Below are positions 1,186 through 50,995 of a stretch of 64,000 nt of DNA, in pieces. The DNA comes from Candidatus Omnitrophota bacterium (GTDB lineage Bacteria > Omnitrophota > Gorgyraeia > Zapsychrales > Zapsychraceae): the NCBI GenBank assembly GCA_035292445.1, contig DATDQB010000010.1, forward strand, positions 3,563 through 67,562, written 5' to 3'. Below the pieces are notes generated by a model. It saw only the letters and a program-made list of their open reading frames with translations. It was not told where the DNA came from and did no database searches. The translations under genes were made by a program, and so were the position numbers. How positions within the stretch are numbered: position 1 is the first letter of the stretch; every line of letters starts with the position of its first letter.

Positions 1186-2214
1186 TCACTCAACTGGAAC
1201 CTGCTGCCACAGCTCAAATACGCGTGAACAGGGTGCGTACCATTTGGAGATCTTAGCGAAATCGCCGCGTAAATGCATTTTCTTTTGTGTGGTAGCCACA
1301 AACGGGTCTATTTCCCGATTAAACACCGCCCGCCACACCTTCTCCGGGGCGGTGATCAAAAACTCCGCGTTCTCATCAGAGCCGACTTTTTCGATTCTAC
1401 CTTTTCGAAACGCGAAGCTGTACGTTTTTCCGGTTTCATTCAGCTTGACCGCCAAGTCCATGGTCATGTTCGTCTTCTCACCCAGCTCTTTCATCTGCTT
1501 ATCTTTATTGACCAGATCAACAATGCTGGCGATCTGTTCTTTTGAGAATAATTTAAATTTCTTTTTATTATTCTGTACGGGCACAGCGCGCTGTGCCCCT
1601 ATCTTGCCCTTTGTACGGGCGACCCGGTGGGTCGCCCCTACGGAATACAACCGGCTGATCGCATCCGTTTTAATGGCGTCTTCAAGCGCCTGGATCAAAA
1701 GAAAACAATCAAAAAGCTCATTGCCCATCGCCACAACGCCATGATTGCGTAAAACAACGATGTTGTTCTTTTTTAAAGCTTCAATGATGGGCACGACATC
1801 GGTCACCGCCGGGGTGGTCTGTTTGACGGATGGCACATCCCCTAAATAAAATCTGGCCTCGAAAATCTTTGGGATCAACTTCTCATTTTCCAGGAAATAA
1901 GCGTTAGTGTATGTTGTATGCGTATGAATAATGGCCCGCGCGTCGGGAAAATTCTTATAAATTTCCGTATGAAGAAGTTTTTCGGAAGAGACAGCCCCTT
2001 CTTCTAACAGCGTTCCATCCAACTTCATGGCCAATACGCCTTTTTCCTGCAAAAGCCCCAAACAAGTTTTGTGGCCCGTAATGACGATCGTGTCCTTATC
2101 AACGCGCGCGCTGATATTACCGTTAAGCCCGCTCACGAGCTCCTTATCCCACATCAGCCCGCCGATGGCGATGATGTTCCGTTTAGCGTTATTTATTTTC
2201 TCTTCGTTATTCAT
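1186..2214 (-). CDS. Class II aldolase/adducin-domain protein with C-terminal SCP2-like domain; candidate methylthioribulose-1-P aldolase/dehydratase (MtnB/Ald2-like)
   Basis: HTHT..Y zinc-site region and overall class II aldolase fold motifs; C-terminal F..T.QKKMHLRGDFAKISKW resembles SCP2 (F.QGKLKI.GD pattern); start taken at MNNEEK to avoid the upstream overlap; adjacent to mtnA. Confidence 0.7.
   Translation of the reverse strand: MNNEEKINNAKRNIIAIGGLMWDKELVSGLNGNISARVDKDTIVITGHKTCLGLLQEKGVLAMKLDGTLLEEGAVSSEKLLHTEIYKNFPDARAIIHTHTTYTNAYFLENEKLIPKIFEARFYLGDVPSVKQTTPAVTDVVPIIEALKKNNIVVLRNHGVVAMGNELFDCFLLIQALEDAIKTDAISRLYSVGATHRVARTKGKIGAQRAVPVQNNKKKFKLFSKEQIASIVDLVNKDKQMKELGEKTNMTMDLAVKLNETGKTYSFAFRKGRIEKVGSDENAEFLITAPEKVWRAVFNREIDPFVATTQKKMHLRGDFAKISKWYAPCSRVFELWQQVPVE
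1575..1645. repeat. Two tandem GTAGGG-family-like hairpins inserted in frame in the class II aldolase gene (between aldolase and SCP2-like domains)
   Basis: gtacGGGCACAGCGCGCTGTGCCCctatcttgccctttgtacGGGCGACCCgGTGGGTCGCCCctacgg; translated VGATHRVARTKGKIGAQRAVPV. Confidence 0.7.
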
Positions 2215-2689: not shown

Positions 2690-3719
2690 CGATCGGTAGT
2701 GACCTCGTTATATATTCGTGCGGGACCACATCAAAACCCGGATAAAAGCCATGAACGGCTCCGCGCACAATCCTTTTTTTGGAAAACGTTAAAAGTTCCT
2801 CGCTGTCTCTGATCTCTATGGGGATATCTTTGCCTGTTTTCACTTTATTTGACGGCTGCGTTAACACGTAGAACGGTATGTCAAATTCCTGGGCCAACAC
2901 GGCGATCTGGTACGTGCCGATCTTATTGGCGAAATCGCCGTTAGCGCAAGAGCGGTCGGAACCGACGATCACTTTATCGACCAACCCGTCCGCCATCAGT
3001 AACCCGATGGCGTTATCAGCGACCAATGTTACATTAGCGCCCATGCGGTTCAATTCCCACGCCGTCAGTTTGGCCCCCTGCAAGTAAGGTCGTGTTTCGG
3101 TCGCAAAGAAATGGATCTTCTTACCATCCTGCTTACAGATCCACGCGGCCATGGCCAGCTCACCGCTGACGTTACAATGCGTCAGGATACTGTCGCCGTT
3201 CTCGATCGTGGCAGCGATCTTTCGCACCCGCTCAAGCCGGCGCATGCGGATCCCCATTAAATAACCTTGAATATTCTTGGACACGAACTCTCGCAGATCA
3301 ATTCCCTCAGCCACCGCCTGCTTTGCCCATCCGACAACCATCCCCGTCACTTCGCTGAAAGGAAACGTCGGGCGGCTGTTATTTAACATATCGGCGGTTT
3401 TTTCTAACCGTTTCAATACCGCCGTAGGGGCGAGTCGCCGACTCGCCCCTACGTTATTTAATTCCAACAAAAACGCGTTTAAAACAACCAAAAACTGCCC
3501 GAACGCCCGAGTCTTCATGTCCTTAATGACCTTCACTGCTTCCTTCACCGAAGTGACAGGAATATAATGAAGCTTCTTGGGGATAAGCGTTTCATCAAGG
3601 ACATATAACGTATTCTTCTTTAGATACGCCGGCCAGAACAATGGCGATTCTTTGATTTCTTTGTGGTCAAGTTGTATGTTCTGCTTGATCATTTTATTTT
3701 CTAGCCAATTGCTCGGCAC
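2679..3719 (-). CDS. mtnA: S-methyl-5-thioribose-1-phosphate isomerase (eIF-2B family)
   Basis: TETRPYLQGAKLTAWEL, VIVGSDRSCANGDFANKIGTY, IPFYVL motifs of MtnA/eIF2B family; carries an in-frame palindromic element (VGASRRLAPT). Confidence 0.8.
   Translation of the reverse strand: MPSNWLENKMIKQNIQLDHKEIKESPLFWPAYLKKNTLYVLDETLIPKKLHYIPVTSVKEAVKVIKDMKTRAFGQFLVVLNAFLLELNNVGASRRLAPTAVLKRLEKTADMLNNSRPTFPFSEVTGMVVGWAKQAVAEGIDLREFVSKNIQGYLMGIRMRRLERVRKIAATIENGDSILTHCNVSGELAMAAWICKQDGKKIHFFATETRPYLQGAKLTAWELNRMGANVTLVADNAIGLLMADGLVDKVIVGSDRSCANGDFANKIGTYQIAVLAQEFDIPFYVLTQPSNKVKTGKDIPIEIRDSEELLTFSKKRIVRGAVHGFYPGFDVVPHEYITRSLPIDVR
3424..3452. repeat. GTAGGG-family 29-nt palindrome inserted in frame in mtnA
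   Basis: GTAGGGGCGAGTCGccGACTCGCCCCTAC; translated VGASRRLAPT. Confidence 0.8.
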
Positions 3720-4485: not shown

Positions 4486-4562
4486 TTTAAGAATCCTTTC
4501 TTTAGCTATCAGTCGTCAGCTTTCAGTCTTCAGCTGAAGACTGTCGACTGATGACTGACGAC

Positions 4563-6050
4563 TTAAGTTAACGCTTCCTGTTTCAACAAACCCTTATCAA
4601 CTTTCCCTGTTCTATTTTTCGGCAAATCAAGCCGCAACTCAATTGTGTGCGGCACTTTAAAATTGGCCAAATGCTGCCGCGCGAAATAACGGATCTCCTC
4701 CGGGCTTACATTCATCCCTTCTTTCAAAACCACGTACGCTTTGACAGCTTCCCCCTTCATCCGGTCGGGGACGCCGACGACCGCGCACTCGGCCACGGCT
4801 TCGTGCTTGTAAAGGGCCGCTTCCACCTCCGGCGCGTACACGATCTGCCCGCCGACTTTGATCATCTCTTTCTTGCGCCCAACGATATAAAGAAAACCTT
4901 TTTCATCGAAGCGTCCCAGATCACCCGTATATAAACCGTCTCTTTTCTTGACCTCCGCTGTCGCCTCCGGGTCCTTATAATAACCGTCCATCACGATCCA
5001 CCCGCTGATGACGATCTCGCCGACTTGACCGAGCGTGACCTCCTGCCCATCATCATCAACGATTTTTATCTTGCAATTGGGCGCGGGCTTGCCGACGCTT
5101 GTGATATTATCGCTGTCCAACGGTGTCACCGTATTGGGAGGGCAAGTTTCCGTCATGCCCCAGCCGTTCAAAAGCCGCGCGTTCGGGCAATATTTATGGA
5201 AACGCGCCATGATCTCAGGAGAGCTCGGCGCGCCGAAAACAACGACCCAACGCAGTGAGGATAAATTAAACCGTTCTATTTCTTTTAATGTCAACAGGGC
5301 ATTGTACATGGGAGGGACAATATGAAAACACGTCACGTGATGCTGCTGCACCAGCGAAAGGAATTCGAAAGGATTGAACCGGTCCATCAAAATAAGCGTG
5401 ATACCGAATTGAATGCAGTTTTGGATATAAATAAACCCGCCGATATGGCTCAAGGGAATGGCGCAAATCTTAATGTCTTTATTGCTTAGATCGACGAAAT
5501 GATCCATCGCGGCAGGCGAGCCTTCCAAATGTTTATAATTAAGCAATATGCCTTTCGGTCTTCCCGTGGTGCCGGATGTGTACATAATAAGGGAAGGGTC
5601 GCTGTCTTTAATATCGGCCTGAGGAACATCGCTTTGCGCTTGAGCGATCAATCCTTCGATATCCGCACATAAAATAACCGTCTCCAGGCTGGGAAGGTTT
5701 TGCTTGATCTTCTCCAGTTCCACCTCATTCCTGGGCATGGCGATCAACACTTTAGCCTCACAATGCTCCAAACAGCTGGTCAATTCATCCTCTTTAAGCA
5801 TGAAGTCCAAGGGGACAGCCACACCGCCCAAATAAAGGCAAGCTAAATAGCTGTAAACATATTCCGGGCAATTGGGCAGGTAAATGGCGATCTTATCGGC
5901 TTTAGACACACCTCTTTCGCTTAAAGCGTTAGCCAGTTTCAATGACCGCTCTTTTAGCTGTTGGAACGTAACCTCTTTGCCTTTAAAGACTAAAGCCATT
6001 TTATCAGCAAAGCGGGTTACCGATTTCTCTAAAAATTCCTTTATAAACAT
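4563..6050 (-). CDS. AMP-dependent acyl-CoA synthetase/ligase
   Basis: YTSGTTGRPKG AMP-binding motif, 495 aa, typical ANL superfamily layout. Confidence 0.85.
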   Translation of the reverse strand: MFIKEFLEKSVTRFADKMALVFKGKEVTFQQLKERSLKLANALSERGVSKADKIAIYLPNCPEYVYSYLACLYLGGVAVPLDFMLKEDELTSCLEHCEAKVLIAMPRNEVELEKIKQNLPSLETVILCADIEGLIAQAQSDVPQADIKDSDPSLIMYTSGTTGRPKGILLNYKHLEGSPAAMDHFVDLSNKDIKICAIPLSHIGGFIYIQNCIQFGITLILMDRFNPFEFLSLVQQHHVTCFHIVPPMYNALLTLKEIERFNLSSLRWVVVFGAPSSPEIMARFHKYCPNARLLNGWGMTETCPPNTVTPLDSDNITSVGKPAPNCKIKIVDDDGQEVTLGQVGEIVISGWIVMDGYYKDPEATAEVKKRDGLYTGDLGRFDEKGFLYIVGRKKEMIKVGGQIVYAPEVEAALYKHEAVAECAVVGVPDRMKGEAVKAYVVLKEGMNVSPEEIRYFARQHLANFKVPHTIELRLDLPKNRTGKVDKGLLKQEALT

Positions 6051-7712: not shown

Positions 7713-7768
7713 GTAAGGGCAACCTTTACGGTTGCCCGATATTGGGCAGGCGCAAGGCCTGCCCCTAC
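7713..7768. repeat. GTAGGG-family double-hairpin palindromic element (copy 1 of a 3-copy 56-nt subtype); its CCCCTAC end supplies the TAG stop of the lipoprotein gene
   Basis: gtaagGGCAACCtttacGGTTGCCCgatattGGGCAGGcgcaaggCCTGCCCctac; near-identical copies at 45004..45059 and 50496..50551. Confidence 0.8.
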
Positions 7769-11217: not shown

Positions 11218-14200
11218 TTATTCCCTTATACCTATAGGTTCTTTTCTTTCGTAGGCTTTGGAAAGCTCTAAGGAGCTAGCGGAATGCTCTGCCAGCGGTT
11301 CGGGCTCTTCTTGGTCAGTGATCCCTAAAAGAAGGGGTAAATTCGTGACAGGGATAATCTGGTAAATGATCGGCGCAAAACCGTTGATCGGCATGGTTTC
11401 CAGCTTCTTTAATTCTTCCGGTAAATTGAATTCTATCGCCCTCCCGCGCTCTTCGATGTCCAACATATCAGGATTCAAGTCAATACCACCGACTTTATCC
11501 TTCTCTTTAGCCCCCATCATCGCCCGGTCGGGTTTGTTGTCTGCCGGACTATTGGGAATAATTATTGAAACAATGGCTCCATGATTATCTCTACGATTTT
11601 CAAACTTTAATGTCCAACCGACATCTTGAAAGGCCCAGCTTAGCGAGATGACATCGAGGCCAGACCTTCCCCAAAATGGTGTATCTTCCGAAGGTATTTT
11701 GGGTGTAACCACTTGCTCTTTTCCCAATCTCTCTAATATTTCAGGCGATATGCCAGTGCCATTATCGATGACTTGAATCAAAATTTGTTGATCTCGAACA
11801 GCTGCTTGTATTGTAATTTGACCTAACTGTCTTGCATTACTACCGTGTTGAGCAAAGATGGCATCAATGGCATTGCGATACAAATCATCCATCCTAGCAT
11901 CCAGATATCCTCGATTTGTCCATTGCGAATGGTCCGTAGGATACCTCTTAAATTGGCCTGACTCTTCTAATTTTAATGTTAATTTTTTCCCGGCTTGCCG
12001 CAAAGCAACAAGAGCTTGTTCTCTCAAATCATAATTATCCGAAACTTTAAATTGGTAAAACTGTACCGTTTCTTCTCCCACCATCGCGGTGTCGGCTTGA
12101 GCGGCAATTTTCATGGCCGCCACGCTCATATCATCGATTTTTCTAAACCGGTTTTCTCTCTGTTTGTCTTTAGCATGGGCCGCAGCTTGATTTCTGATAG
12201 CCCTACTAAAATCGTTCATATCCTCGAATTGATCGGCAAACTGCGCAACGGAATCTTCAAACTCCTTTTTACTTTTAGTAAAATTTTCATATATCCCATC
12301 GGAGACGGAAAAAACTATATCATCAAGTTCAATGTCGACTATACCATACTGCCAATCTTGCAATTCATGACCGCGTTCCAGGCCTATCCCATCGCTAAGA
12401 ATAGCACTGTACATGTGCCCTATCGCCTGTTCTTCTGTCATAGAACCTGTGCGAATAAACTCTTGCGCAAAGGTATCATCCTGCGTTAATTGGATCAACT
12501 GCCGTTTGCGTTTGCTCCATGCATAAATCCGGCTATCCCCCTTGTTAAAGAAAATAACCTGCCTTTTCCCCGATACGGTTTCCTCACGAATATGAAATAA
12601 GCTTAAAGTGGTTTCAAGCTTATCCTCCTTTTGATCTGTAAGACTATTGACCATTTTATATTCTGCATAAGCTGCTTGAATTTTCTGAACCAAATCTTCC
12701 CAGATCGGTTTTAATTCTCCCCTCGTACGCACTTGCGCCAGAATATCCACCTTTAGTTGATCAAGCGAAACTTCAACAGCTAATCGAGAAGCAACTCCTG
12801 AATATTTATGATCGCCAACACCATCGGCCAAAGCAACGGCTCTTTTAACCCGGTTCACATCGGTATAATCTTTGTTGGGACGAGCCCGAAGCGTATCTGA
12901 AACCATGCCGGTCCGTACATGCTCATCCGCTATCATGGCGCGATCTAAATCACCATCGATAGGAGAACTAATGGGCACTTGCTCCATTCGATTAAAAGCA
13001 TCGATCATTTTTTCAATACTGACCGATCTTCTTCTTTGCGCCATTGTTGCATTTGGCCTTAATCTCATTTCGATCCGTTCCGGTATGGTGTTTCGAATAA
13101 TGTGATCCACATACTGCCAGCGGCCAAACTCCGCGCTCCGACGCAGACCAAACCGCTCATAATTTGCCAAAACATTAATGGTCGGCTCCCCATTTCTCAT
13201 GGTAGGAATAAAATCGGGCCTGATACCCATCAAGGAGGTAAACGGCTCTATTTTCCCTTCGAGACCACCATTCTCAAAACGATAATGGCCTTGATGCGCC
13301 AACTCGGCGGCAATATATAATAGTGCAACTATAGGATGCAAGCCGAGATCCTGAGGAAAAATCTCATTAATCAATTTCTGCTTGCCGGAAACGCCGTGGA
13401 CCAAATTCACCCTGATCGTGTCTTCTTGCGTGTCCAATCCAATACGGGCAAAAACACCTTTCATAGGGTCAACGCTGTCTCCTTCTTCTCCAATGACCAG
13501 GTAAATACCATGCGTATTTTCTGCTAATCCGTATTTCATCGCAATAAAATATGACGTTCCAGGAATAGTGGCCTTTAAAATGGCTTGGCCATTAATAAAT
13601 TCGGGGGAAAACATACCCGTCATTCTTTTCATATTCGAGGTTGGTAATATCAATTTCTGATTATCATCGATTCCCGGAGGCAGAAAATAAACATACTTCT
13701 CCCTTAAATTAGAATAACGTTGATAGGTATCGATAGTTGTGTCAATAAAGTCTGCGAATACTGCATCAGAGACAGCGCTCAAATTTATTCCTTCTTTATT
13801 CAGCCACTGCATTACATTAAAAATGATATCGGAAGTAATCTGCCATTTATGGCTTAAAGCGTTTATCCACGCCTGCGCATATCGCTTTTTCCCGGAGGTA
13901 TATAATTTAGTAATATGAAAGAATATTTTATGGATTAAAGCGGGTGTGGGAAGGCGGTCTTCTTTTCCAGTATCGCCCCAAGCCATGATCTGTTCTTTAT
14001 CTGTATCCGTGAATCCCCATCTTCCTTGAAGAGCACGCACCTGAGGCGCTGTTTCTATAAGGCCCGCCATTTCTTCTGACAACATGGCGTTATCGGTTAA
14101 AGATGGTCCCAATAATCGCGTTACATCCGTGACACTTTCCCCATCGCGGCCTTTGGCATCTAACACGGCAGAGGCGATTATGGCATGATTAAAATTTTGC

Positions 14201-15318
14201 TCAACCCTAGCCGCGAATTCCGGGGCATCGACAACCAGCATGGCCTCATCCACTGCCATTTTCGCCCCACCGGAAAAATACTTTCGTGGAATGACTTCCT
14301 GGGTGGCGGGATCATACTCTTCTTTGATGTAATTGTAGACCCCGACCTTAAAGGCCTCTAAATACTGCTCGTAGATCTTTTGTTTCACTTGTTTGTCTTC
14401 GACGTCCACGCCCTCTGTTTTATTTTGATCCACGTAAATTCTGTTGAGCAAATGCCCCTCAAGTTTTCTCTTGAACCACGTGGCTAAGATCAATGAATTG
14501 TAGATCTGGCGCAAATTGGCGAAATTCTTGCCTTCGTTGACTTCCTTCTCGATCTCAGGAAGAATCACCTCCCTCATCATTTCAGTCATCAGTCGTCGGT
14601 CTTCAGTCGTCAGACCTTCCTCTGACGTCTGATGACTGATGTCTGATGACTGACTAAGCGCCAAATAGTCTTCTTCCAACATCACCTTCAAATGCGACTC
14701 CACCACAAAGGCCGTATCGCCGTTCTCATAGACAACCGCTTTTTCAGGAACGATCCACACTTTATTGAACGTGTTGACCGGAATATCGCTGGTGCCGTAC
14801 AATTCATAAGCCCTCTGATGGATCCTATCCCAGAACTTCTTGCCCAATTCTTCCTCAGGATAGATCAGGCTTGCCGTTAATTGTTTAAGCAAATAATCCT
14901 GCGCCAAAAGGTCGCGCCCCATTTCCGTTATACCGAAACCCTCCGGCACAATGCGGTCCTTTTCATACGGCGAGAGATTGACCCACAAGTCTTCTTTGGG
15001 CACGGTCAAACTGGCCAGAAAATATTTGACCAATTTGTCGGCTTCAAGGCGCAAGGCCTCGTCTTTGAGGTTGCTTTCGCCTGTATCGATAATGAAATCA
15101 AAACGAAGCGGATTATCGGCGTAAATTTTAATGCCTTTCATCAAAGGCGGCGTGAAGGCGACGCTTGGCGGGAGCAACGTTCCCGGGGAGACAAGCGGTA
15201 AGGCCGCTTGCGCCCACACGAGTGAAGGAAGATAGACCGTTGAAACAAAAAAGACAACGGCAATCGTGGCGCAAATAAACTTAAATAATTGTGATTTTCT
15301 TAGAATATGTATACACAT
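11218..15318 (-). CDS. Giant modular protein (1366 aa): signal/TM, conserved N-cap, unknown module, PP2C-like phosphatase, GHKL (HATPase_c) module, conserved C-cap; paralog of the 4345-aa protein
   Basis: N-terminal hydrophobic segment; PP2C motif ALADGVGDHKYSGVASRLA...SVSDGIYE; HATPase_c motif IQVIDNGTGISPEILERLGKE...GRSGLDVIS; N-cap and C-cap about 60-70% identical to the 50935..63972 protein; five D-x-A-M-[VLIM] junction motifs. Confidence 0.8.
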   Translation of the reverse strand: MCIHILRKSQLFKFICATIAVVFFVSTVYLPSLVWAQAALPLVSPGTLLPPSVAFTPPLMKGIKIYADNPLRFDFIIDTGESNLKDEALRLEADKLVKYFLASLTVPKEDLWVNLSPYEKDRIVPEGFGITEMGRDLLAQDYLLKQLTASLIYPEEELGKKFWDRIHQRAYELYGTSDIPVNTFNKVWIVPEKAVVYENGDTAFVVESHLKVMLEEDYLALSQSSDISHQTSEEGLTTEDRRLMTEMMREVILPEIEKEVNEGKNFANLRQIYNSLILATWFKRKLEGHLLNRIYVDQNKTEGVDVEDKQVKQKIYEQYLEAFKVGVYNYIKEEYDPATQEVIPRKYFSGGAKMAVDEAMLVVDAPEFAARVEQNFNHAIIASAVLDAKGRDGESVTDVTRLLGPSLTDNAMLSEEMAGLIETAPQVRALQGRWGFTDTDKEQIMAWGDTGKEDRLPTPALIHKIFFHITKLYTSGKKRYAQAWINALSHKWQITSDIIFNVMQWLNKEGINLSAVSDAVFADFIDTTIDTYQRYSNLREKYVYFLPPGIDDNQKLILPTSNMKRMTGMFSPEFINGQAILKATIPGTSYFIAMKYGLAENTHGIYLVIGEEGDSVDPMKGVFARIGLDTQEDTIRVNLVHGVSGKQKLINEIFPQDLGLHPIVALLYIAAELAHQGHYRFENGGLEGKIEPFTSLMGIRPDFIPTMRNGEPTINVLANYERFGLRRSAEFGRWQYVDHIIRNTIPERIEMRLRPNATMAQRRRSVSIEKMIDAFNRMEQVPISSPIDGDLDRAMIADEHVRTGMVSDTLRARPNKDYTDVNRVKRAVALADGVGDHKYSGVASRLAVEVSLDQLKVDILAQVRTRGELKPIWEDLVQKIQAAYAEYKMVNSLTDQKEDKLETTLSLFHIREETVSGKRQVIFFNKGDSRIYAWSKRKRQLIQLTQDDTFAQEFIRTGSMTEEQAIGHMYSAILSDGIGLERGHELQDWQYGIVDIELDDIVFSVSDGIYENFTKSKKEFEDSVAQFADQFEDMNDFSRAIRNQAAAHAKDKQRENRFRKIDDMSVAAMKIAAQADTAMVGEETVQFYQFKVSDNYDLREQALVALRQAGKKLTLKLEESGQFKRYPTDHSQWTNRGYLDARMDDLYRNAIDAIFAQHGSNARQLGQITIQAAVRDQQILIQVIDNGTGISPEILERLGKEQVVTPKIPSEDTPFWGRSGLDVISLSWAFQDVGWTLKFENRRDNHGAIVSIIIPNSPADNKPDRAMMGAKEKDKVGGIDLNPDMLDIEERGRAIEFNLPEELKKLETMPINGFAPIIYQIIPVTNLPLLLGITDQEEPEPLAEHSASSLELSKAYERKEPIGIRE

Positions 15319-16942: not shown

Positions 16943-18420
16943 GGGCTGTGAGTCATTGAAGGTTGAATTAATCGTTCAAAAATAACCCGGCCGTTGACCA
17001 AAGCCGGGTCCTTGCTTTGCGCCGCCTCAAGCCTGGAAACAAAATCTTCCAAAAAAGAAATACCGGTTATTTCCCTGGCCAACTCGATGGCACGCGCTGC
17101 GTAGCGCAAGATCTGAATGGTCTCTATCCTAGAAACATCTTCGAAAAACCATCCGCAACTGGTGAACATAAACATGGCGAATTTCTGCATTTCTAATAAT
17201 TTCAAGATTTTTGTTTTGTCTTGTAGGGGCAGGGCATGCCCTGCCCCTACGATATCTCGAATAAATTTATCCACATTGTTATCAGAAAGGTTCAACAATA
17301 ACGTGATATATTCATCTCGTGCCTTCCACGGATCATCACAAAATTGACACATTTGAGTTTCATAAACGTCTATTAATTGATCCCTCAACCAATTCAGCGA
17401 TTCCCGAAGCGTGCCGCGCCATTTATGCACCTTGCGCGTGTGCGTATCATAACTATGGCGGTCGTCCTTGCTCCAGCGATTTAATCCCGAGTCGCAGCTC
17501 CACGCGGTATTTTCAATGATTTCGACTTCAAAGGTTGGCGGGTGGCGTTCTAAAAATGAGCCGTAATTAATTAACTGCGCTTCATCGCTTTGGTCAAAAT
17601 GATCGAAAACCTTTTTAAGGACCAGCTGCCCTCTTTTATGGTGATGCCCGTAGGTTTCCCCATCCACCGCGCAATGAATGACCGTAGGCTCATCAAAGGG
17701 GCGCTCGATTTCCCGCTGGATGCCGTGAATAAAACGAGTGGCGCTGTTGATATAGCCTCCGAAGGCAACATGGGTGGCCATGGAGCCGTCATAAAAAAAC
17801 AAAGCGATGCTTTTACCGGAGGGCAACGGACATTTATAAACCCTTTTCGTTTCAACGCTGGCGTATTGGCCGACCTCTTCCCACACCCTCTGTCCCTGTT
17901 TTCGTATTTTTGCCGCCTGCGCAGGGGCAAGGACTGTAAATAGAATGCCGTGCTGGACCAATACCTCAAGGGTCGCCACATCCACCGCCGTTTCGGGAAG
18001 CCACATCCCTTCGGGCTTGCGCTTGAACCGATGCTCGAAATCCTTGATCCCCCAGATCACCTGCGTATGTTTATCCCGTTCATTGGCCAGGGGCATAATC
18101 ATGTGGTTGTAGCCCTGCGCCAAGGCCGAGCCGTGGCCCTGGAATCGGATTCGGCTTATTTGGTCCGCCTGAAGAATGGCCTCGTAGGAATATGCGCCCT
18201 TTTCCTTAAGCCACGTCAAAAGGGTCGGCCCAAAATTAAAACTCATCCGTTCGTAGTTCTTGAGCTTGGCGTTGGATTCATAGCATTCGGCATTGATGCG
18301 CTCATTCCAGTCGTGGTAGGGATGGGCGGTTTCCTGGACGTCAACCTGGCTGGTCCAAGGATTCTCTCGGGGAGGCTGATAAAAATGCCCGTGCAGGCAA
18401 ATATATTTTTCCATTTTCAA
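16939..18420 (-). CDS. Glycoside hydrolase family 57 protein (probable 1,4-alpha-glucan branching enzyme)
   Basis: HGHFYQPPRE signature of GH57; size about 490 aa; co-located with malQ; contains an in-frame 28-nt palindrome (VGAGHALPL). Confidence 0.8.
   Translation of the reverse strand: MKMEKYICLHGHFYQPPRENPWTSQVDVQETAHPYHDWNERINAECYESNAKLKNYERMSFNFGPTLLTWLKEKGAYSYEAILQADQISRIRFQGHGSALAQGYNHMIMPLANERDKHTQVIWGIKDFEHRFKRKPEGMWLPETAVDVATLEVLVQHGILFTVLAPAQAAKIRKQGQRVWEEVGQYASVETKRVYKCPLPSGKSIALFFYDGSMATHVAFGGYINSATRFIHGIQREIERPFDEPTVIHCAVDGETYGHHHKRGQLVLKKVFDHFDQSDEAQLINYGSFLERHPPTFEVEIIENTAWSCDSGLNRWSKDDRHSYDTHTRKVHKWRGTLRESLNWLRDQLIDVYETQMCQFCDDPWKARDEYITLLLNLSDNNVDKFIRDIVGAGHALPLQDKTKILKLLEMQKFAMFMFTSCGWFFEDVSRIETIQILRYAARAIELAREITGISFLEDFVSRLEAAQSKDPALVNGRVIFERLIQPSMTHSP
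17223..17250. repeat. GTAGGG-family perfect 28-nt palindrome inserted in frame inside the GH57 gene
   Basis: GTAGGGGCAGGGCATGCCCTGCCCCTAC; translated as VGAGHALPL in the minus-strand frame. Confidence 0.8.
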
Positions 18421-38648: not shown

Positions 38649-38654
38649 ATTTCG

Positions 38655-38689
38655 TTAATAGCTAATAGTTAATGGTTAATGGTTAATAG
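38655..38689. repeat. Five tandem heptamers TTAATAG/CTAATAG/TTAATGG directly after the rpmB stop
   Basis: ttaatag ctaatag ttaatgg ttaatgg ttaatag. Confidence 0.7.
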
Positions 38690-38724
38690 TGCGATGTTGT
38701 CCGATTTCCCTATTCACTATTAAC
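38683..38724. terminator. Hairpin (10-bp stem GTTAATAGTG/CACTATTAAC, 22-nt loop) between convergent rpmB and recJ; possible bidirectional terminator
   Basis: Inverted repeat; AT-rich flanks but no clean U-run. Confidence 0.35.
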
Positions 38725-38751
38725 TATTTACGATTAACAAACAACCCACTT

Positions 38752-42112: not shown

Positions 42113-42200
42113 ATTTCGTACCTCGTACTTCGTACATCGTACATCGTGAAGATTCCCAAATGCGAAGTACGAAGTACGAAAGACGAAGTACGAAAATGGG
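42113..42200 (-). promoter_or_regulatory. Long imperfect hairpin built from (T)TCGTAC / GTACGA(A) hexamer repeats in the argS 5' leader; overlaps the SD-like GAGGT
   Basis: Left arm ttcgtacctcgtacttcgtacatcgtacatcg, loop tgaagattcccaaatg, right arm cgaagtacgaagtacgaaagacgaagtacgaaa. Confidence 0.4.
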
Positions 42201-42933: not shown

Positions 42934-44208
42934 TTAATTGCGAATCCCAAATAACGAATGAATTTCTTTTTCCTGATCGTTCGTCAGCGGGCCGATCAAG
43001 GCCAGGTTAAAACGCTTGGGATCGAGGATATGCTTGGCAACGCGCCGCACATCCGATGGCGTTATCTTCTTGAGTTCATTGACGACCTCATGCCTCGTAT
43101 GTAGGCGGTTGCGGCTCATGAGGCTTTCCCCCATCCAGATCATATGTTCCATTGTGTCTTCTAAACCTAACAGGATTTGGCCTATGACATATTCCCTGGC
43201 CCTTTTAAATTCTTCCTGCCCGACATTCGCCGCCTTGATCCTCTCCAGCTCCTTCAATATCAGCCCCAGCGCTTGCGTGAGCCTTTGATTATCAACGCCC
43301 GCCTTGATGAGAAAAATGCCGGTATCGGCCAGCGGTTTATTGTAACTGGAGATCGAATACGCGAGCCCATGCTTTTCCCGCACCTCGACGAACAGGCGGC
43401 TGCTCATGTTCCCGCCTAAAATGACGCTTAACAGGCTTAAAACGTAGCGCTCCTTCTGAAATTGGTTGTAGCCCAGCATCCCCAATGCCAAATGCATCTG
43501 CTCGATATCTTTTTTGTGCAGATTTAACCGGGGGGCGCTCTGGGCATTGACCGCTTTGATAAATCCTTTACCCGCGGAACCGGCCGCGCGACCCAGTTTT
43601 CTTTTGGCCGCCTGAACAAGCTTGGTGTGGGAGATCTTGCCACAGGCCACGATTGCCGCGTTACCGGCGCCGTAATACGTCTTATGGAAATCCGAAAGGT
43701 TCTCTTTGGTCGTTGAGCCGACGCTTTCGACCGTCCCGGCCAAGCTTTTGCCCAACGGATGGTTCGGCCAAACCAATCCATCCAGCAGTTCCATCACATG
43801 GTATTGAGGGATATCATGGTACATCTTGATCTCTTCCATGATGACGGTCTTCTCTTTATTGAGTTCCTCGGTTTTCATATTAGGGAAAAACGCCATGTCG
43901 GCCAAGACATCAAAAGTCTGATCGAAATGTTTGGCCGGGATCTTGGCATGATAGCACGTTTGCTCCTCAGCGGTAAACGCGTTCAGTGAGCCACCGACCC
44001 CTTCGATCAATTGCTTGATCTCCTCGCAGGCATACTTTTGGCTTCCTTTAAAGACCATGTGTTCCAAAAAATGCGCGGCGCCCTTGATGTGGTCCTCTTC
44101 GTAACGGCCGCCGGCATTGAACCAGAAGCCTAAGGCGACACTATCGCGATCTTTCATTTCGTGGGAAACGATTCTTAAGCCATTGGGGAGAATTTCTTTT
44201 TTATACAT
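42934..44208 (-). CDS. M16 family zinc peptidase (insulinase-like)
   Basis: HFLEHMVFKGS inverted zinc-binding motif. Confidence 0.85.
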   Translation of the reverse strand: MYKKEILPNGLRIVSHEMKDRDSVALGFWFNAGGRYEEDHIKGAAHFLEHMVFKGSQKYACEEIKQLIEGVGGSLNAFTAEEQTCYHAKIPAKHFDQTFDVLADMAFFPNMKTEELNKEKTVIMEEIKMYHDIPQYHVMELLDGLVWPNHPLGKSLAGTVESVGSTTKENLSDFHKTYYGAGNAAIVACGKISHTKLVQAAKRKLGRAAGSAGKGFIKAVNAQSAPRLNLHKKDIEQMHLALGMLGYNQFQKERYVLSLLSVILGGNMSSRLFVEVREKHGLAYSISSYNKPLADTGIFLIKAGVDNQRLTQALGLILKELERIKAANVGQEEFKRAREYVIGQILLGLEDTMEHMIWMGESLMSRNRLHTRHEVVNELKKITPSDVRRVAKHILDPKRFNLALIGPLTNDQEKEIHSLFGIRN

Positions 44209-44993
44209 TAACGAAGGCCTTTCATAAGCTGATCGACAAATGCAGAAACTTTTTTAACCGACCCACGGGTTTTATAGATCTGATTGACGATGGCACTGCC
44301 GATTATAACGCCGTCAGCGATTTTGGCGACAGCGCGCACCTGCTCTTTGGTCGAAACGCCAAACCCCACACAGACTGGTTTAGCCGTTAAGCGCTTGGCC
44401 AAACGTACTTGGCTTTTAATGGTTTCGGGAAGCTTGCTGCGCGCTCCGGTGACGCCGGTCAAAGAAACGTAGTAAATGAACCCGGTTGACGCCTTGGCGA
44501 TGAGCTGCATGCGTTTCTTGGTAGTTGTCGGTGCAATAAAAAATACCGTTGCCAGATCATTCTTTCTAGCTGCTTGAGTTAGTTTATGGCTTTCTTCGGG
44601 GGGCAGATCGGGAATGATGACGCCATCCACGCCGCTTGATCTTGCCTTCTTTATGAACTGCTCTTCGCCACGATGGAAAACAGGATTGAAATACGTCATG
44701 AGCGCGATCGGCATATTGCTCTTTTGCCGGATACGGGAAACGAGCTGAAAGATCTTATCTAACGTAACGCCTTTGCCTAACGCCCGTTGCGAGGATGCCT
44801 GAATGGTCGGCCCGTCCGCCAACGGATCGGAAAATGGCACGCCCAGCTCAACAATATCCACGCCGATTCTTTCGAAGGCAATGACCAATGCTTCGGTAGC
44901 TTTAAGGGACGGATCGCCTGCGGTGATGAAAGCGATGAAGGCTTTTTCCCGTCGTTTTCTTAATTCATTAAATTTTTTGGTAATACGATTCAT
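44208..44993 (-). CDS. trpA: Tryptophan synthase alpha chain
   Basis: ELGVPFSDPLADGPTIQ motif, 261 aa. Confidence 0.9.
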   Translation of the reverse strand: MNRITKKFNELRKRREKAFIAFITAGDPSLKATEALVIAFERIGVDIVELGVPFSDPLADGPTIQASSQRALGKGVTLDKIFQLVSRIRQKSNMPIALMTYFNPVFHRGEEQFIKKARSSGVDGVIIPDLPPEESHKLTQAARKNDLATVFFIAPTTTKKRMQLIAKASTGFIYYVSLTGVTGARSKLPETIKSQVRLAKRLTAKPVCVGFGVSTKEQVRAVAKIADGVIIGSAIVNQIYKTRGSVKKVSAFVDQLMKGLR

Positions 44994-45003
44994 AATTAAT
45001 CCT

Positions 45004-45059
45004 GCAGGGGCAACCTTTATGGTTGCCCGTTATCGGGCAGACGCAAGGCCTGCCCCTAC
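45004..45059. repeat. GTAGGG-family double-hairpin element (copy 2 of the 56-nt subtype); supplies the TAG stop of trpB
   Basis: gcaGGGGCAACCtttatGGTTGCCCgttatcGGGCAGacgcaaggCCTGCCCctac. Confidence 0.8.
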
Positions 45060-46237
45060 ATCAAATCCTTTATCGAATTCATATCCTTGTCACCTCTACC
45101 GGACAAACAAACAATGACCGTTTTCTTTCCTTTTACCTTCCTCGCCAACTTTTCTAAATACGCGATCGCATGGGCCGTTTCCAACGCCGGGATGATCCCT
45201 TCCGTCCTCGATAACAGCTTAAGTCCTTCAATAGCTTCTTTATCATTAATTGAAACGTATTGCGCCCGTTTAATTTTCTTATAGTACGAATGCTCCGGCC
45301 CGACACCGGGATAATCCAGCCCGGCCGCGATCGAATGCGCTACTTTGATCTGGCCGTCGCGCGTTTGTAACAGATCTGATTTGCTCCCATGAAGGACGCC
45401 GATCTCCCCCATCGCCAACGGCGCCGAGTGATGGCCTGATTGCAATCCCAGCCCGGCCGCCTCAACTCCGATCATTTTTACTCTCTTGTCATTGAAGAAA
45501 GTATGGAACAGCCCCATCGCGTTACTGCCGCCGCCGACACAGGCCAGCAGATAATCCGGCAATTTCTTTTCTTTGGCCAAAAATTGCTTTCGGGCTTCAC
45601 GGCCGATGACCGATTGGAATTCGCGCACCATCAAAGGATACGGATGCGGGCCGGCCACGGAGCCGATAATATAAAATGTGTTCTGAACATTGGTGACCCA
45701 ATCGCGAATGGCTTCATTCATCGCGTCTTTAAGTGTCTGCGATCCCGAAGTGACGGTAATGACCTTGGCTCCCAGAAGCTTCATCCGGTCCACATTAAGC
45801 GCTTGGCGCTTGGTGTCCTGCGCTCCCATGTAGATCTCGCATTGCAACCCCATAAGCGCAGCTGCGGTTGCGGTCGCCACACCGTGCTGGCCGGCGCCGG
45901 TTTCGGCGATGATACGGGTCTTGCCCATGCGCTTGGCGATCAATACCTGGCCTAAGGTGTTATTGATCTTGTGCGCACCCGTATGGAGTAGGTCCTCGCG
46001 TTTTAAATACACTTTAAGCCTTCCCACATGCTCGCTTAGACGTTTCGCGTAATACAAACTCGTGGGCCGGCCGGCGTATTCCTTCAGATAATAATCCAAC
46101 TCCCGATGGAATTTTCTGTCCTTCCTGAGGGCAGAAAACGTCCTTTGCAGTTCGTCCAGAAGCGCCATCAGCGTCTCAGGGACGAACCGCCCGCCGAAGG
46201 GACCGAAATGGCCATTTTTATCGGGTAATTTATTCAT
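45056..46237 (-). CDS. trpB: Tryptophan synthase beta chain
   Basis: [20 protein letters not shown]-enzyme motifs of TrpB. Confidence 0.95.
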
Positions 46238-46305
46238 ATCACTTCCTAAAATTGAATTCCTATTGGAACATAAAATTATGGGTATGTCAATCTTTCATAC
46301 CCATC

Positions 46306-46334
46306 GTAGGGACAGTACATTGTGCTGTCCCTAC
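46306..46334. repeat. GTAGGG-family 29-nt palindrome; supplies the TAG stop of the M48 peptidase gene
   Basis: GTAGGGACAGtacattgtgCTGTCCCTAC. Confidence 0.8.
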
Positions 46335-48010
46335 GCTCGTGTCGTGGCTTCCTCTATCAAATACTGGAGCACTTCCAGTTCATCATGGTCAAACCAGATG
46401 GAACCGCAAGCGAAACATCGGTCCATTTCTACCTTGTAGACCTCGGTATAAAACATCCGATGCATTTTATTGCGGGGATGGTTGCATTTGGGACATGTAA
46501 ATAGCGTCTGCGGGTTCCTTTTGATAGCCGGCGCCATAAACATATCAGCCGTTTTCTTGATCGTTTCGGCAATATGCTTGACCTTCTCGGAGAAACCGAC
46601 ATCCTGTCGGATGATAATACGCTTAACGTCATTCTCATGGACCAGAACGCCGTGACAGAACGGGCATTTTTCAAGCTCTACGCCTTCATAATAGACTTTG
46701 GAAAGCGCCAGATGGCAACGCGGGCACTTTTCCGACGCTTCTTTCATTTCATCGCTGTGGCCGAGGACGCCGGCCAAGGCTTGATCTTCGTACGCCGGTT
46801 TGACTTTATCTTCATCCAAGCGCTTGATCCAGGTTTGCGGCTCGATCCAATCAAAGGTGGCCATCTGGACCAGCTCAAAAGGCCCTTGCCACCGGCCATC
46901 TTTGTGGACCATCCACTTGGTGTCGATGCCGACGGCTTCGGGCACTTGCGTTCTGGGTTTATTCTCTAATTTTTTTACACCCTGCACCAGCTGCTCGACA
47001 TCCGCATGAGCCATTTCCAAAAGAATGCCTAAACGCTTCTCAACCGGTGGATGCGTGGAAAACAGCTCGGCGAAAATGCCTTCATGTTCATCCAAATAGG
47101 CATACTGCGGGTTAACGATAAAAATAGCTTCCATTTCTTGAGCGGTCAATTCTTGCCCGCGCCAATGATAGGCAATGGCGTAAAGCGCTTCCGCCAAACT
47201 TAACGGATCGCGTGTTAAACGGACCGAAATGGCATCCGCCCGGTATTCGCGCTGGCGCGAAATGAACATCCGCACCAAATGGCTTAAAAATTTTGTCAGC
47301 AATAACAAAATATAGATCAATAAAATAACGGCAACGGCCCCTCCTCCGCTACCGCGCCCGCGGGATGAATAAGAACTGCGCCGGCCGCTGCCCCGAAGCA
47401 TCAGTTCGATCCCCTTCAAAAGGCCGCCGTAAAGGGCAAAAATGGAGCTGGTCACGGTCGTCGCCAAACAATCGCGCGAGACGATATGGGCCACTTCATG
47501 GCCCACGATCGCTTCGATCTGAGCGCGGGATAATCGGGCCAAAACACCTTCGGTGGTCCCGAGCACATGATGTCCCTCAAAATCGGAAAGCGCAAAGGCG
47601 TTCATGGCCATCGTTGGAATGATTACCCCTTCGATCTTTACCCCGCCCGTGGCCACAGAAACTTCATCCAAAATGTTACGGAACATCTGATGATACGTGT
47701 CCTTTTCATTAAGTTTCTCCGCCCCCAGAACGCCGAGCATTTTTTTGATCAAATTGCTGGTGGTGTAGCTCCAATGGCCGTAGCCAACGACACAAGCGAT
47801 GGCTAAAATGATAAGGGTCGTTGGAAAATCCAGGAAGAAGAACACAAAGGACTGCTGCTCATAAGTGGGGATCTCACTGTAGGCGATGGCATTGGCCACA
47901 ACCATCGCAATGCCCCAAAAGGCGAGAAAATAAAAAAGAATTAAAAAGGAAAAGACAAAACCGATGGTACGGGTTTTGTCTTCCTCGATTTGGGTGAACG
48001 AATACGGCAT
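46331..48010 (-). CDS. M48 family membrane metallopeptidase (HtpX-like) with C-terminal tandem zinc-ribbon domains
   Basis: N-terminal TM helices; HEVAHIVSRD HExxH; C-terminal CPRC...CPFC and CPKC...CFAC motifs. Confidence 0.75.
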   Translation of the reverse strand: MPYSFTQIEEDKTRTIGFVFSFLILFYFLAFWGIAMVVANAIAYSEIPTYEQQSFVFFFLDFPTTLIILAIACVVGYGHWSYTTSNLIKKMLGVLGAEKLNEKDTYHQMFRNILDEVSVATGGVKIEGVIIPTMAMNAFALSDFEGHHVLGTTEGVLARLSRAQIEAIVGHEVAHIVSRDCLATTVTSSIFALYGGLLKGIELMLRGSGRRSSYSSRGRGSGGGAVAVILLIYILLLLTKFLSHLVRMFISRQREYRADAISVRLTRDPLSLAEALYAIAYHWRGQELTAQEMEAIFIVNPQYAYLDEHEGIFAELFSTHPPVEKRLGILLEMAHADVEQLVQGVKKLENKPRTQVPEAVGIDTKWMVHKDGRWQGPFELVQMATFDWIEPQTWIKRLDEDKVKPAYEDQALAGVLGHSDEMKEASEKCPRCHLALSKVYYEGVELEKCPFCHGVLVHENDVKRIIIRQDVGFSEKVKHIAETIKKTADMFMAPAIKRNPQTLFTCPKCNHPRNKMHRMFYTEVYKVEMDRCFACGSIWFDHDELEVLQYLIEEATTRA

Positions 48011-48019
48011 CTTTTGAAT

Positions 48020-48048
48020 GTAGGGAACGGTTTCAAACCGTTCCCTAC
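48020..48048. repeat. GTAGGG-family 29-nt palindrome between the lemA stop and the M48 peptidase start
   Basis: GTAGGGAACGGTTTcAAACCGTTCCCTAC. Confidence 0.8.
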
Positions 48049-48053
48049 ATTAT

Positions 48054-48605
48054 TTAGAATTTGACCTTCGGCGTTTCTTTTTGGGCCGCGTCTTCGATCT
48101 CAAAGAAGTCGTTTTTCTTGAAATTAAAACTGCCGGCAATCACGTTCGCGGGAAAAGACTGGACGGCTGTGTTGAGCCGGTTGACCTCATCGTTGTAATA
48201 TTGCCGGGCGAAGGTAATCTTATTTTCGGTCGTAGTCAATTCTTCGTGAAGCTGCATCATCTGCCGGTCGGCCTTGAGATTGGGATATTGCTCCGAAACA
48301 GCAAAAAGGCTACGCAAGGTGCTCGTCAAAAGGTTTTCGGCCTGCTGGCGGTCTTTGAGGTCGCTCGCATTAATGGCCTGTTGGCGCGCCTTAATGACCT
48401 TTTCCAACGTGTCTTTCTCATGGGCCATATAGCCTTTGGCCGTTTCCACTAAATTGGGGATCAGGTCGTGGCGGCGTTTGAGCTGCACATCGATCTGCGA
48501 CCAGCCGTTTTTCACGTTCTCGCGCAATTGCACGAGCCGGTTGTAAACGCCGATGGCCCATATCATGGCAACAACTATCAAACCTAATAAGATCCAGAGA
48601 ATCAT
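48054..48605 (-). CDS. lemA: LemA family protein
   Basis: N-terminal TM plus NRLVQLRENVKNGWSQIDVQLKRRHDLIPNLVE LemA signature. Confidence 0.85.
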   Translation of the reverse strand: MILWILLGLIVVAMIWAIGVYNRLVQLRENVKNGWSQIDVQLKRRHDLIPNLVETAKGYMAHEKDTLEKVIKARQQAINASDLKDRQQAENLLTSTLRSLFAVSEQYPNLKADRQMMQLHEELTTTENKITFARQYYNDEVNRLNTAVQSFPANVIAGSFNFKKNDFFEIEDAAQKETPKVKF

Positions 48606-48663
48606 GCCTCTCCTCCCACGTTAAAGGTTAAAATTCAAAACCAGTATAGCACATCCTGAAAAC

Positions 48664-49344
48664 TTAAGGGGCATAACTTTCCATGACCAAAGACGTCTTG
48701 CCGAAACCGACCGAGCCCTTGATGCGCAAAGGGATCCTGCGTTCAGTTGTATCGAACCAAATCTGATAATCTTTGTCGTTGCCTTCCAAGTAATACGTTT
48801 CATGTTCCTGGCCAACCGCCTCTATTTTTTCCCGACCGGCAAACCCGATCATGACATCTTTTGTCGGCAAGGTCATCTCAAGCTTCTCTCCGGGTTTAAA
48901 CTGCCCGGAAACCCTGTAACGGTATATGAACGCGTAAATATTATCCAGCCTCTGAGGCTTTTTGATCTCGAAGGCCTCCCGCTTTCCCTTGGCGACTTTT
49001 ATGATACGCACGTACCCGTCTTCCCTGTAACGTTCGGTAATGCTCTCCTTTTTTCCCCACATGTCGATGTCGCGCTCGATAATGGCCGGATAGAACGATT
49101 GCGGGTCCAGATAGATCTTCTCGGTATCGCGCATGCGAAGCGCAGCCGTATCGACCGTGACCAGGATATAATCCCGGCCTTCCAGCGGTGTTATGCCGTG
49201 ATAGCGGACAATGACTTTCCCGACCGTTAAGTTGGCTTTCTTGATCTGGTAGGTGATGGTCTCACCGGGGACGAAGACGGCGGCAAAAGAGCTGGAAGAC
49301 AGCAAAACGATCAACGCTAAGAAAGATATTCGGCTTCGTATCAT
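48664..49344 (-). CDS. Secreted hypothetical protein (possibly DUF3108-like)
   Basis: Signal peptide; beta-rich; no firm family. Confidence 0.45.
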   Translation of the reverse strand: MIRSRISFLALIVLLSSSSFAAVFVPGETITYQIKKANLTVGKVIVRYHGITPLEGRDYILVTVDTAALRMRDTEKIYLDPQSFYPAIIERDIDMWGKKESITERYREDGYVRIIKVAKGKREAFEIKKPQRLDNIYAFIYRYRVSGQFKPGEKLEMTLPTKDVMIGFAGREKIEAVGQEHETYYLEGNDKDYQIWFDTTERRIPLRIKGSVGFGKTSLVMESYAP

Positions 49345-50483: not shown

Positions 50484-50495
50484 TTGTTTATAAAC

Positions 50496-50551
50496 GTAGG
50501 GGCAACCTTTACGGTTGCCCATCCTCGGGCAGGCACAAGGCCTGCCCCTAC
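50496..50551. repeat. GTAGGG-family double-hairpin element (copy 3 of the 56-nt subtype)
   Basis: gtagGGGCAACCtttacGGTTGCCCatcctcGGGCAGGcacaaggCCTGCCCctac. Confidence 0.8.
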
Positions 50552-50554
50552 GAT

Positions 50555-50860
50555 TCAATCCTTAAACAAATCCTCCGCTTTCATCTTCCCCAAATTCATC
50601 TTGTAATCATCAAAATCAATGACCGTGACACTGGGCTTCTCAGCAGCGAGCTTGGCCAGCTTGGGCCAGTGGGATCTGATGTTACGAAAGCTAACGTATT
50701 TAAATTCAGTTTTGCAGTTGGGACAAAGCGGTTCGTTTAATTTGATATCGATGTGATCGCAGTTGGCGCATTGGCCGGAAACATCGCCGTAGATGAGCAA
50801 TTGCTTTTTGATGGCGTGGAGGTCGATTTCTTTAAAAACACGGATAAATTTGCCGCTCAT
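50555..50860 (-). CDS. Small zinc-ribbon hypothetical protein (101 aa)
   Basis: CANC...CPNC cysteine pairs. Confidence 0.5.
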   Translation of the reverse strand: MSGKFIRVFKEIDLHAIKKQLLIYGDVSGQCANCDHIDIKLNEPLCPNCKTEFKYVSFRNIRSHWPKLAKLAAEKPSVTVIDFDDYKMNLGKMKAEDLFKD

Positions 50861-50928
50861 AATGGGCTAATTATAACATAAGAAGAGAAAAGGGAAGGAA
50901 ATTAATCGGGAAAGAATGTTAGGAAATC

Positions 50929-50995
50929 GGGTTATCAGGGTATCTGGTTATCAGGAATAAGCCTGATATCCTGGTATCCTGATGTCCTGATAACC
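50929..50995. repeat. Cluster of GGTTATCAGG (x2) and inverted CCTGATNTCC/CCTGATAACC (x3) decamers spanning the stop codon of the giant gene
   Basis: gggttatcagggtatctggttatcaggaataagcctgatatcctggtatcctgatgtcctgataacc. Confidence 0.6.

Follow-up and report, generated by a model that had tools for sequence, protein, structure and literature searches.

Three genes in the 64-kb stretch of Omnitrophota DNA analyzed here (the window) end on a TAG that lies within the head of a palindromic repeat, and these repeats are, by their anatomy, GTAG-headed REPs. It is likely that they are selfish elements constrained by a transposase in a compact genome and that the register shared by the three stops is a by-product of the head sequence, of the habit of REPs of settling 3' of genes, and of purifying selection. 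The assignment to GTAG-type REPs follows from three defining traits of that class, namely, a GTAG head at the base of a short (20- to 40-bp), GC-rich hairpin, the inverted doublets, and the position just 3' of ORFs (Nunvar 2010, PMC2817692; Di Nocera 2013, PMC3733652).

Elements and their setting in the window

The window has a GC content of 47.6%, and nearly all of its genes lie on the minus strand. The genome is very tightly packed here, with a median intergenic spacer of 7 nt across the 47 window genes. The same genes use TAA 25 times, TGA 15 times, and TAG 7 times as a stop, and three of the seven TAG stops fall within GTAG elements. The gene order is shared with other Omnitrophota loci, indicating conserved synteny, and the nearest nonidentical relatives of the M48 and MtnA proteins are only 68 to 76% identical.

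Eight palindromic elements with a GTAGGG end were found in the window (Table 1), namely, five palindromes of 28 to 29 nt and three double hairpins of 56 nt. The GTAGGG/CCCTAC end is present in all eight, with a one-base variant in E1, E3, and E5. The stems are 7 to 14 bp long and vary from copy to copy yet remain complementary, and the elements have calculated folding energies of -21 to -38 kcal/mol, with z-scores between -3.6 and -8.3. Five of the eight are situated 0 to 5 nt from an upstream stop within codirectional gene arrays, in line with the usual placement of GTAG-type REPs between codirectional or convergent ORFs and near the 3' end of the upstream one. The remaining three lie within genes.

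In the single elements E2, E4, E6, and E7, the GTAG pairs with the CTAC of the opposite end, and each of these elements could be taken for a pair of REPs, one on each strand, that overlap over their full length. The head of a classical REP is described as unpaired, and we count this pairing against the REP account. The doublets fold as two separate hairpins closed by GTAG/CTAC, in the layout GTAG-GGGCAGGC..GCCTGCCC, 6 nt, GGGCAACC..GGTTGCCC-CTAC, and the two heads belong to two REPs, as in tail-to-tail dimers. Pairwise identity among the three doublets is 84 to 87% (repeat family D3). E3 consists of two unlike hairpins standing tail to tail across the 6-nt spacer; its proximal head, GTAGGGG, is on the side of the lipoprotein stop, while the distal head is degenerate and reads GTAAGGG on the plus strand. 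The distal head of E5 is likewise degenerate (GCAGGGG on the plus strand).

Table 1. Elements of the window and the genes that end within them
Feature	Position	Strand	Description
E1	1613..1641	-	29-nt palindrome, intragenic (Aldolase_II/SCP2 gene)
E2	3424..3452	-	Perfect 29-nt palindrome, intragenic (MtnA, methylthioribose-1-phosphate isomerase)
E3	7713..7768	-	56-nt REP doublet, supplies lipoprotein stop; -35.6 kcal/mol, z -4.7
Lipoprotein gene, 155 aa	7765-8232	-	TAG stop 7765-7767 within E3 head
E4	17223..17250	-	Perfect 28-nt palindrome, intragenic (GH57/DUF3536)
E5	45004..45059	-	56-nt REP doublet, fills trpB-trpA spacer, supplies trpB stop
trpB, 393 aa	45056-46237	-	TAG stop 45056-45058 within E5 head
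E6	46306..46334	-	29-nt palindrome GTAGGGACAG-9 nt-CTGTCCCTAC, supplies M48 stop; -21.1 kcal/mol
M48 peptidase with zinc ribbon, 559 aa	46331-48010	-	TAG stop 46331-46333 within E6 head
E7	48020..48048	-	Perfect 29-nt palindrome, 5 nt past TAA of LemA gene
E8	50496..50551	-	56-nt REP doublet, both GTAGGGG heads intact, 3 nt past TGA of 101-aa gene

A search of the whole window with the Rfam covariance models at the gathering score gave no match, and a tRNA scan of the window found nothing. Literature searches with sequence strings (GTAGGGGCA and similar) returned only unrelated primer matches.

The window also holds a second, unrelated class of hairpin whose arms are tandem repeats of 7 to 8 nt, with folding energies of -28 to -42 kcal/mol, at 4499-4567, 14582-14653, 38651-38741, 42114-42195, and 50930-50995. 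The repeat unit differs per site (GTCGTCA.., GTTAAT.., TCGTACT.., GGATAYCAG..). Four of these hairpins sit 1 to 12 nt past a stop or overlap one, and one lies inside a 1366-aa ORF. The same class is found after the TAG of trpB in the nearest relative (L209), and the trpB-trpA spacers of two further loci, L210 (5036-5137) and L211 (4514-4597), contain a different palindromic repeat (..GTCATTCTGAGCGAAGCGAAGAATC....GGACTCCTCAGGATGAC..). The trpB-trpA junction thus holds three repeat classes in three Omnitrophota lineages.

Two other features of the surrounding genes were noticed. The automatic calls of the M20 peptidase (49341-50558; L001/L002, 393 and 405 aa) start inside or upstream of E8, and comparison with locus L212 (MINKHRLIK...) places the true start at an ATG near 50479. 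In L212 the TGA of the upstream gene overlaps the ATG of the M20 gene (ATGA), so that E8 has split an overlapping gene pair. The 1366-aa ORF (11218-15318) and a 4345-aa ORF (50935-63972) have in common two 300-nt stretches with 78% identity (14256-14956 versus 62973-63694), which points to a paralogous domain in two giant proteins; Pfam matches in the 4345-aa ORF are Pkinase, methyltransferase, and PTS-HPr.

Gene ends within the elements

The lipoprotein gene, trpB, and the M48 peptidase gene each terminate on bases 2 to 4 of a minus-strand GTAGGG that opens a stable hairpin, in the register nnG-TAG-GGn. The last sense codons are GAG, ATG, and GCG, which gives a complete G-TAG-GG at each of the three stops. 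This bears out the original prediction, both as to the identical register of the three stops and as to the different reading, GTA-GGG, of the in-frame intragenic copies E1, E2, and E4. All three genes are backed as real by Pfam or by orthologs. The tail of TrpB is as long as that of its orthologs in L210/L211 (...DKDMEQIKPYI*), which stop with TAA and have no element, and the lipoprotein tail, ...VFEELGTKFQVAE, is as long as that in L215, ...VFEEFDQRFPPAL, which stops with TGA and also has no element; the comparison is not a sharp one, as the tails of all three proteins vary by 1 to 8 residues among relatives. In protein alignments, the M48 tail (IEEATTRA*) is of equal length to that of P0003 (IEATVEKV*) and several other homologs, and since the length of this tail varies among homologs, the comparison is uninformative with regard to truncation. 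Judged from these alignments, the three proteins are neither truncated nor extended, and the TAG of the element sits where the native stop would be. Equal tail lengths agree both with an exact stop-replacing insertion and with selection to keep the length constant.

Three of the five gene-end elements (E3, E5, and E6) thus supply the stop of the upstream gene. For the other two, the TAG of E7 is in frame but unused (TAA ATA ATG TAG), and E8 stands in another register (TGA ATC GTA GGG). Within the window alone, the case for a nonchance overlap is only suggestive, with three of five not being significant by itself.

A terminator scan of positions 44000 to 51000 took in E5 to E8 and hence four of the five copies at gene ends. 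None of these elements coincided with a terminator-like site, and no T run was seen by eye after the stems of E5 and E6. At E3, which lies beyond the scanned region, a T-rich stretch begins approximately 7 nt past the second stem. An intrinsic terminator was rejected on the grounds that there are no T tracts at the elements checked. Termination between trpB and trpA would also be harmful, because the junction lies within a codirectional, operon-like array.

Copies inside genes

The three intragenic copies add short peptides to the proteins in which they lie. E1 encodes VGATHRVART in the linker between Aldolase_II and SCP2, where it matches an 8-aa gap in the ortholog of L216; E2 encodes VGASRRLAPT in MtnA; and E4 encodes VGAGHALPL in the GH57/DUF3536 protein. 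The MtnA element occurs at the same codon position in Omnitrophota species with an MtnA that shares only about 70% identity with that of the window, and E2 and the copy in L214 (8205-8233) are both perfect palindromes that differ by two compensatory stem changes (GCGAGTCG versus GCGACCCG). The MtnA gene of L215 (8001-9002) has a decayed copy of the element, and that of L216 has none. Residues resembling VG.../...APT are present at the site in about one-third of the 50 closest homologs. The sharing of this site could be explained by upkeep of the stem, by recurrent hits on the same position, or by conversion from REP copies elsewhere.

Census of heads against ORF ends

The relation between heads and gene ends was examined in a census of 291 nonredundant GTAG-headed hairpins in 1.36 Mb of sequence from other genomes and metagenomes, which took two REP sequence types from many phyla and not from the genome of the window. 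At each site, the internal control was which of the three frames still held an ORF of at least 100 codons at the head. The raw counts were 57 for the TAG frame, 23 for GT-AGG, and 53 for GTA-GGG. In loci with a GC content below 50%, where long ORFs are reliable, the corresponding counts were 8, 0, and 6. For high-GC loci the ORF calls depend on a GC3 heuristic, and after this filter was applied to them the census gave 37, 6, and 18 (chi-square P = 6e-6), so that the TAG frame made up 61% of the ORFs compared to the 33% expected (P = 1.5e-5).

The position of the ORF ends was as biased as their register. Fifty-seven ORFs of at least 100 codons stopped exactly on the TAG of the head, whereas no single offset between -60 and -5 nt had more than 5 and the upstream background was about 1.6 ORF ends per nucleotide. 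Among all TAG trinucleotides in the census sequences, 5.9% end such an ORF. Pfam domains were present in 10 of 10 offset-0 ORFs tested, most of them running to within approximately 15 residues of the C terminus, and the tested ORFs included GpsA, SDRs, a histidine kinase, IMPDH, and Ddl. The bias of the heads in position and register relative to gene ends is real and general, and the lack of bias by which the original prediction would have been refuted did not appear.

A census based on the longest open frame near the elements could not be relied on at loci of high GC content, which have several open frames, and gave results that disagreed between orthologous Latescibacterota loci; it was replaced by the within-site comparison of three frames, with the GC split and the GC3 filter. 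The idea that native stops drift off once an in-frame element TAG lies downstream was rejected because in-frame upstream stops were not depleted (22 of 50 by our own tally).

Distribution and link to a transposase

The left hairpin alone, GGGCAACCTTTAYGGTTGCCC, gave 92 exact matches at 89 loci in more than 15 phyla in a scan of one genome per species, compared to approximately 2 matches expected by chance (our own estimate). GTAG stands directly upstream of 66 of these 92 matches, though it was absent from the query. The core of the doublet was found at no fewer than 117 metagenome loci, nearly all of them GTAGGGGCAGGCCTTGTGCCTGCCC-N-GGGCAACCACAAGGGTTGCCCCTAC. The hosts of the 21-mer (loci L003 to L091; doublet loci, L092 to L208) are MAGs labeled Betaproteobacteria, Deinococcales, Bacteroidota, Chloroflexota, Latescibacterota, Nitrospirae, Omnitrophica, Saccharibacteria, and others. 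REP families are usually regarded as lineage specific. Convergence under a shared RAYT constraint, horizontal spread, or contamination of the MAGs may explain the sharing of GGGCAACCTTTAYGGTTGCCC across phyla.

At one of the doublet loci (L108, JGI contig Ga0315268_10229290), an ORF at 162-947 that resembles a RAYT lies 30 nt downstream of a GTAGGGG...CCCCTAC doublet. Without its REP-derived insert, this ORF matched NF047646 (REP-associated tyrosine transposase) with an E value of 4e-18 and 65.7 bits, which is below the curated cutoff of 80, and Y1_Tnp (PF01797) with an E value of 7e-5. The uncut ORF had no match in Pfam, and the match to the TnpA-REP sequence of PDB entry 4er8 was weak (E = 0.12). 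In-frame REP copies (..VGAGLVPA...RATTRVAPT..) break up the gene between its HUH motif and the region of the catalytic Tyr. REPs of this type typically flank a cognate RAYT gene of their own genome. No RAYT gene was present among the 20 window ORFs scanned, and we infer that a RAYT mobilizes the elements in this genome.

Several loci (L082, L090, L120, L176, L178, L190, and others) carry tandem arrays in which only a part of the REP, the loop and the 3' arm, is repeated (for example, CGGTTGCCCATCTG at least four times), and at other loci of the same scans whole doublets are reiterated with a 54-nt period. Arrays of partial and of whole REPs suggest slippage or repeated partial copying at REPs.

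Discussion

The GTAG-headed class of REPs is elsewhere generated and maintained by RAYT (IS200-like) transposases that recognize a 5' GTAG. Our preferred account is that such repeats have colonized a very compact Omnitrophota genome, in which almost no spacer is available and only sharing of the TAG would leave the upstream protein intact. A copy that came to lie flush with a gene end in the register G|TAG|GG would become the stop of that gene with no change in protein length, while each of the other two registers would force translation into the hairpin. Copies in the GT-AGG frame would be purged, and read-in copies would survive only where additional residues are tolerated, in loops and linkers, as GTA-GGG encoding Val-Gly-Ala. 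The identical register would then arise mainly from a head that contains an amber codon and is constrained by the transposase, from the REP habit of lying immediately 3' of ORFs, and from purifying selection. REPs do tend to sit directly 3' of ORFs (Di Nocera 2013, PMC3733652).

The head itself argues for this account. GTAG is the motif recognized by REP-associated tyrosine transposases (PMC2817692), and it is bound in a base-specific manner by TnpA-REP and needed for cleavage (PMC3479197). Since GTAG is also kept in copies that do not act as stops, including the intragenic ones, the TAG is not there for the sake of termination. The suggestion in the original prediction that termination is what the end sequence is selected for is therefore not supported, GTAG heading the intragenic and nonstop copies equally (66 of the 92 matches above), and the further suggestion of a combined stop and terminator finds no support in the terminator scan of E5 to E8 or in the operon-like setting of trpB-trpA. 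The preserved protein lengths agree with the proposal that the elements insert at, or fuse to, stop codons, which here is inseparable from random insertion followed by purifying selection. Neutral random insertion into gene tails predicts a 1:2 ratio of stop-supplying to read-in copies, which the spike at offset 0 exceeds, so that strong selection or some targeting must be added. We infer that selection rather than targeting is the cause of the bias.

The precision of the overlap could also have its origin in the insertion step, with the hairpin inserted just 3' of a preexisting GTAG or TAG, the stop belonging to the gene, and G-preceded amber stops being preferred. IS200/IS605 elements insert 3' of a fixed tetranucleotide. 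Such targeting would agree with the match in protein length to element-free orthologs in all three genes, with the very sharp spike of ORF ends, and with the undepleted in-frame stops just upstream, which speak against a slow drift to a backup TAG. The GTAG has been likened to the guide and target tetranucleotides of IS200/IS605 (PMC3479197). We nevertheless consider targeted insertion unlikely. The element-free orthologs stop with TAA (trpB of L210/L211) or TGA (the lipoprotein of L215) and not with TAG, and the empty MtnA site of L216 has no GTAG. Palindromic and doublet copies bear a head at both ends, which means that at least one head travels with the element, and by a rough reckoning only about 5% of the usable GTAG sites of a genome are G-TAG stops, compared to 13 to 20% of heads acting as stops. 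It is unlikely, too, that the stem-loop is selected as a module at the 3' end for exonuclease protection, as a processing site, for translation uncoupling or attenuation, or for termination without a U tract. At least nine codirectional junctions of the window have a stable hairpin at the stop or within approximately 12 nt of it, and these belong to two repeat classes that have no relation to each other, the GTAG elements and the hairpins of tandem 7- to 8-nt units. The pattern extends to relatives, with tandem-unit hairpins after trpB and M48 and a GTAG hairpin 1 nt past the trpA stop in L209, and the stem of the MtnA copy has been kept perfect between species through its two compensatory changes. 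However, the scanned gene-end copies lack terminator-like sites, the same elements occur within coding sequence, a location in which neither termination nor processing is a plausible role, the distal heads of E3 and E5 are decaying, Rfam has no match, and hairpins would accumulate anyway in the only permissive niche.

A broader version of both ideas holds that Omnitrophota hairpin repeats of at least two unrelated classes are placed with nucleotide precision at stops, through transposition targeted to G-TAG or as a selected module for U-tract-independent 3'-end formation, processing, or uncoupling, that stop and structure would act together as a single functional unit, and that the MtnA palindrome reflects the same maintenance; this we regard as improbable. 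That the genes have their true ends elsewhere and the ORFs simply continue to the next available TAG is scarcely credible. In favor of such an artifact, the GTAGGG hexamer is not overrepresented in the window (18 observed versus 14.1 expected) and the count of three in five is not significant by itself, but the three ORFs have no earlier in-frame stop, their C termini align residue for residue with those of orthologs, and an independent census backed by Pfam is significant. The ortholog tails, the Pfam matches, and the filtered census effectively refute a chance origin.

Under the preferred account of selfish, transposase-constrained REPs, the elements may still affect their hosts. By extrapolation from E. 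coli, termination is probably slowed, or expression reduced, when the stop lies in the 5' arm of so stable a hairpin (-21 to -38 kcal/mol), and a role in mRNA stability or the attenuation of translation is possible. In E. coli, a REP no more than 15 nt from a stop causes ribosomes to stall and reduces expression (Liang et al. 2015, as summarized in PMC12306157), a finding that would also suit a 3'-end module. In that system of translational downregulation (Liang, Rudd, and Deutscher 2015, Mol Cell), the hairpin is situated up to 15 nt from the stop of the upstream gene, and here the distance is zero.

Our observations corroborate a picture that was already in the literature. GTAG REP termini "often provide the ... 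stop codon (TAG)" (Di Nocera, De Gregorio, and Rocco 2013, BMC Genomics 14:522, PMC3733652), so the overlap with stops was published in 2013, and our case adds a clean example to it without revealing a new mechanism. The families in that survey, above all those of the PVC bacterium Opitutus terrae, are the closest known system. They likewise have GTAG at the foot of a GC-rich stem of 6 to 13 bp and occur as singles and as dimers, either tail to tail or head to head, that are separated by short spacers; in some of the tail-to-tail dimers the spacer is very short (PMC3733652). Intragenic copies were catalogued as well and were most numerous in O. terrae, and the peptides listed for such copies include VGAGLPA (PMC3733652); the in-frame copies described here similarly encode peptides of the V-G-A type. 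In contrast to the 2013 families, the single elements of the window are perfect palindromes with a head on both strands (GTAGGG...CCCTAC), the stems differ per copy yet are complementary, the doublets are hetero-doublets with a 6-nt spacer, and a cognate RAYT was not found among the 20 window ORFs scanned. The host phylum, Omnitrophota, was absent from that survey. The occurrence of GTAG REPs with known habits in this phylum is what is new here, and the other differences are minor.

The E. coli REP/BIME system and its TnpA-REP have in common with the window a 5' GTAG with a hairpin, the inverted pairs, and, in E. coli, an IS200-like Y1 enzyme (Nunvar 2010; Ton-Hoang 2012; Messing 2012; PMC2817692, PMC3479197). 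The E. coli stems are imperfect, with a bulge that is required for binding, whereas most window stems are perfect, and unlike in E. coli, the RAYT link of the window-type REPs comes from a related REP in another organism (L108). Three near-identical 56-nt doublets are what would be expected of a replicating doublet. In this they resemble the REPINs of Pseudomonas fluorescens, which Bertels and Rainey in 2011 reportedly described as two inverted REPs forming one mobile, hairpin-forming unit. The halves of the window doublets differ from REPINs in having different stems (GGGCAACC versus GGGCAGGC) and in forming two separate hairpins and not a single long one. The palindromic elements of Rickettsia (RPE), which Ogata et al. 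are said to have found in 2000 inserted in frame in protein genes, are similar in that the window palindromes, too, are tolerated in frame in the surface loops or linkers of conserved proteins. The tag is CGTC in RPE-4 and RPE-6 (PMC3733652) and GTAG here, and the lineage is a different one, so that only the in-frame intragenic behavior is common to the two.

In conclusion, we find no new termination mechanism in these gene ends, and the consequences are of another kind. For annotation, REP heads can supply amber stops, and REPs can be the source of Val-Gly-Ala...Ala-Pro-Thr peptides within genuine proteins and of spurious N-terminal extensions. The findings extend GTAG REPs to an uncultured PVC-related phylum and show one REP sequence type to be common to many phyla, and the register bias of 37:6:18 is a quantity that any model of REP spread must explain.
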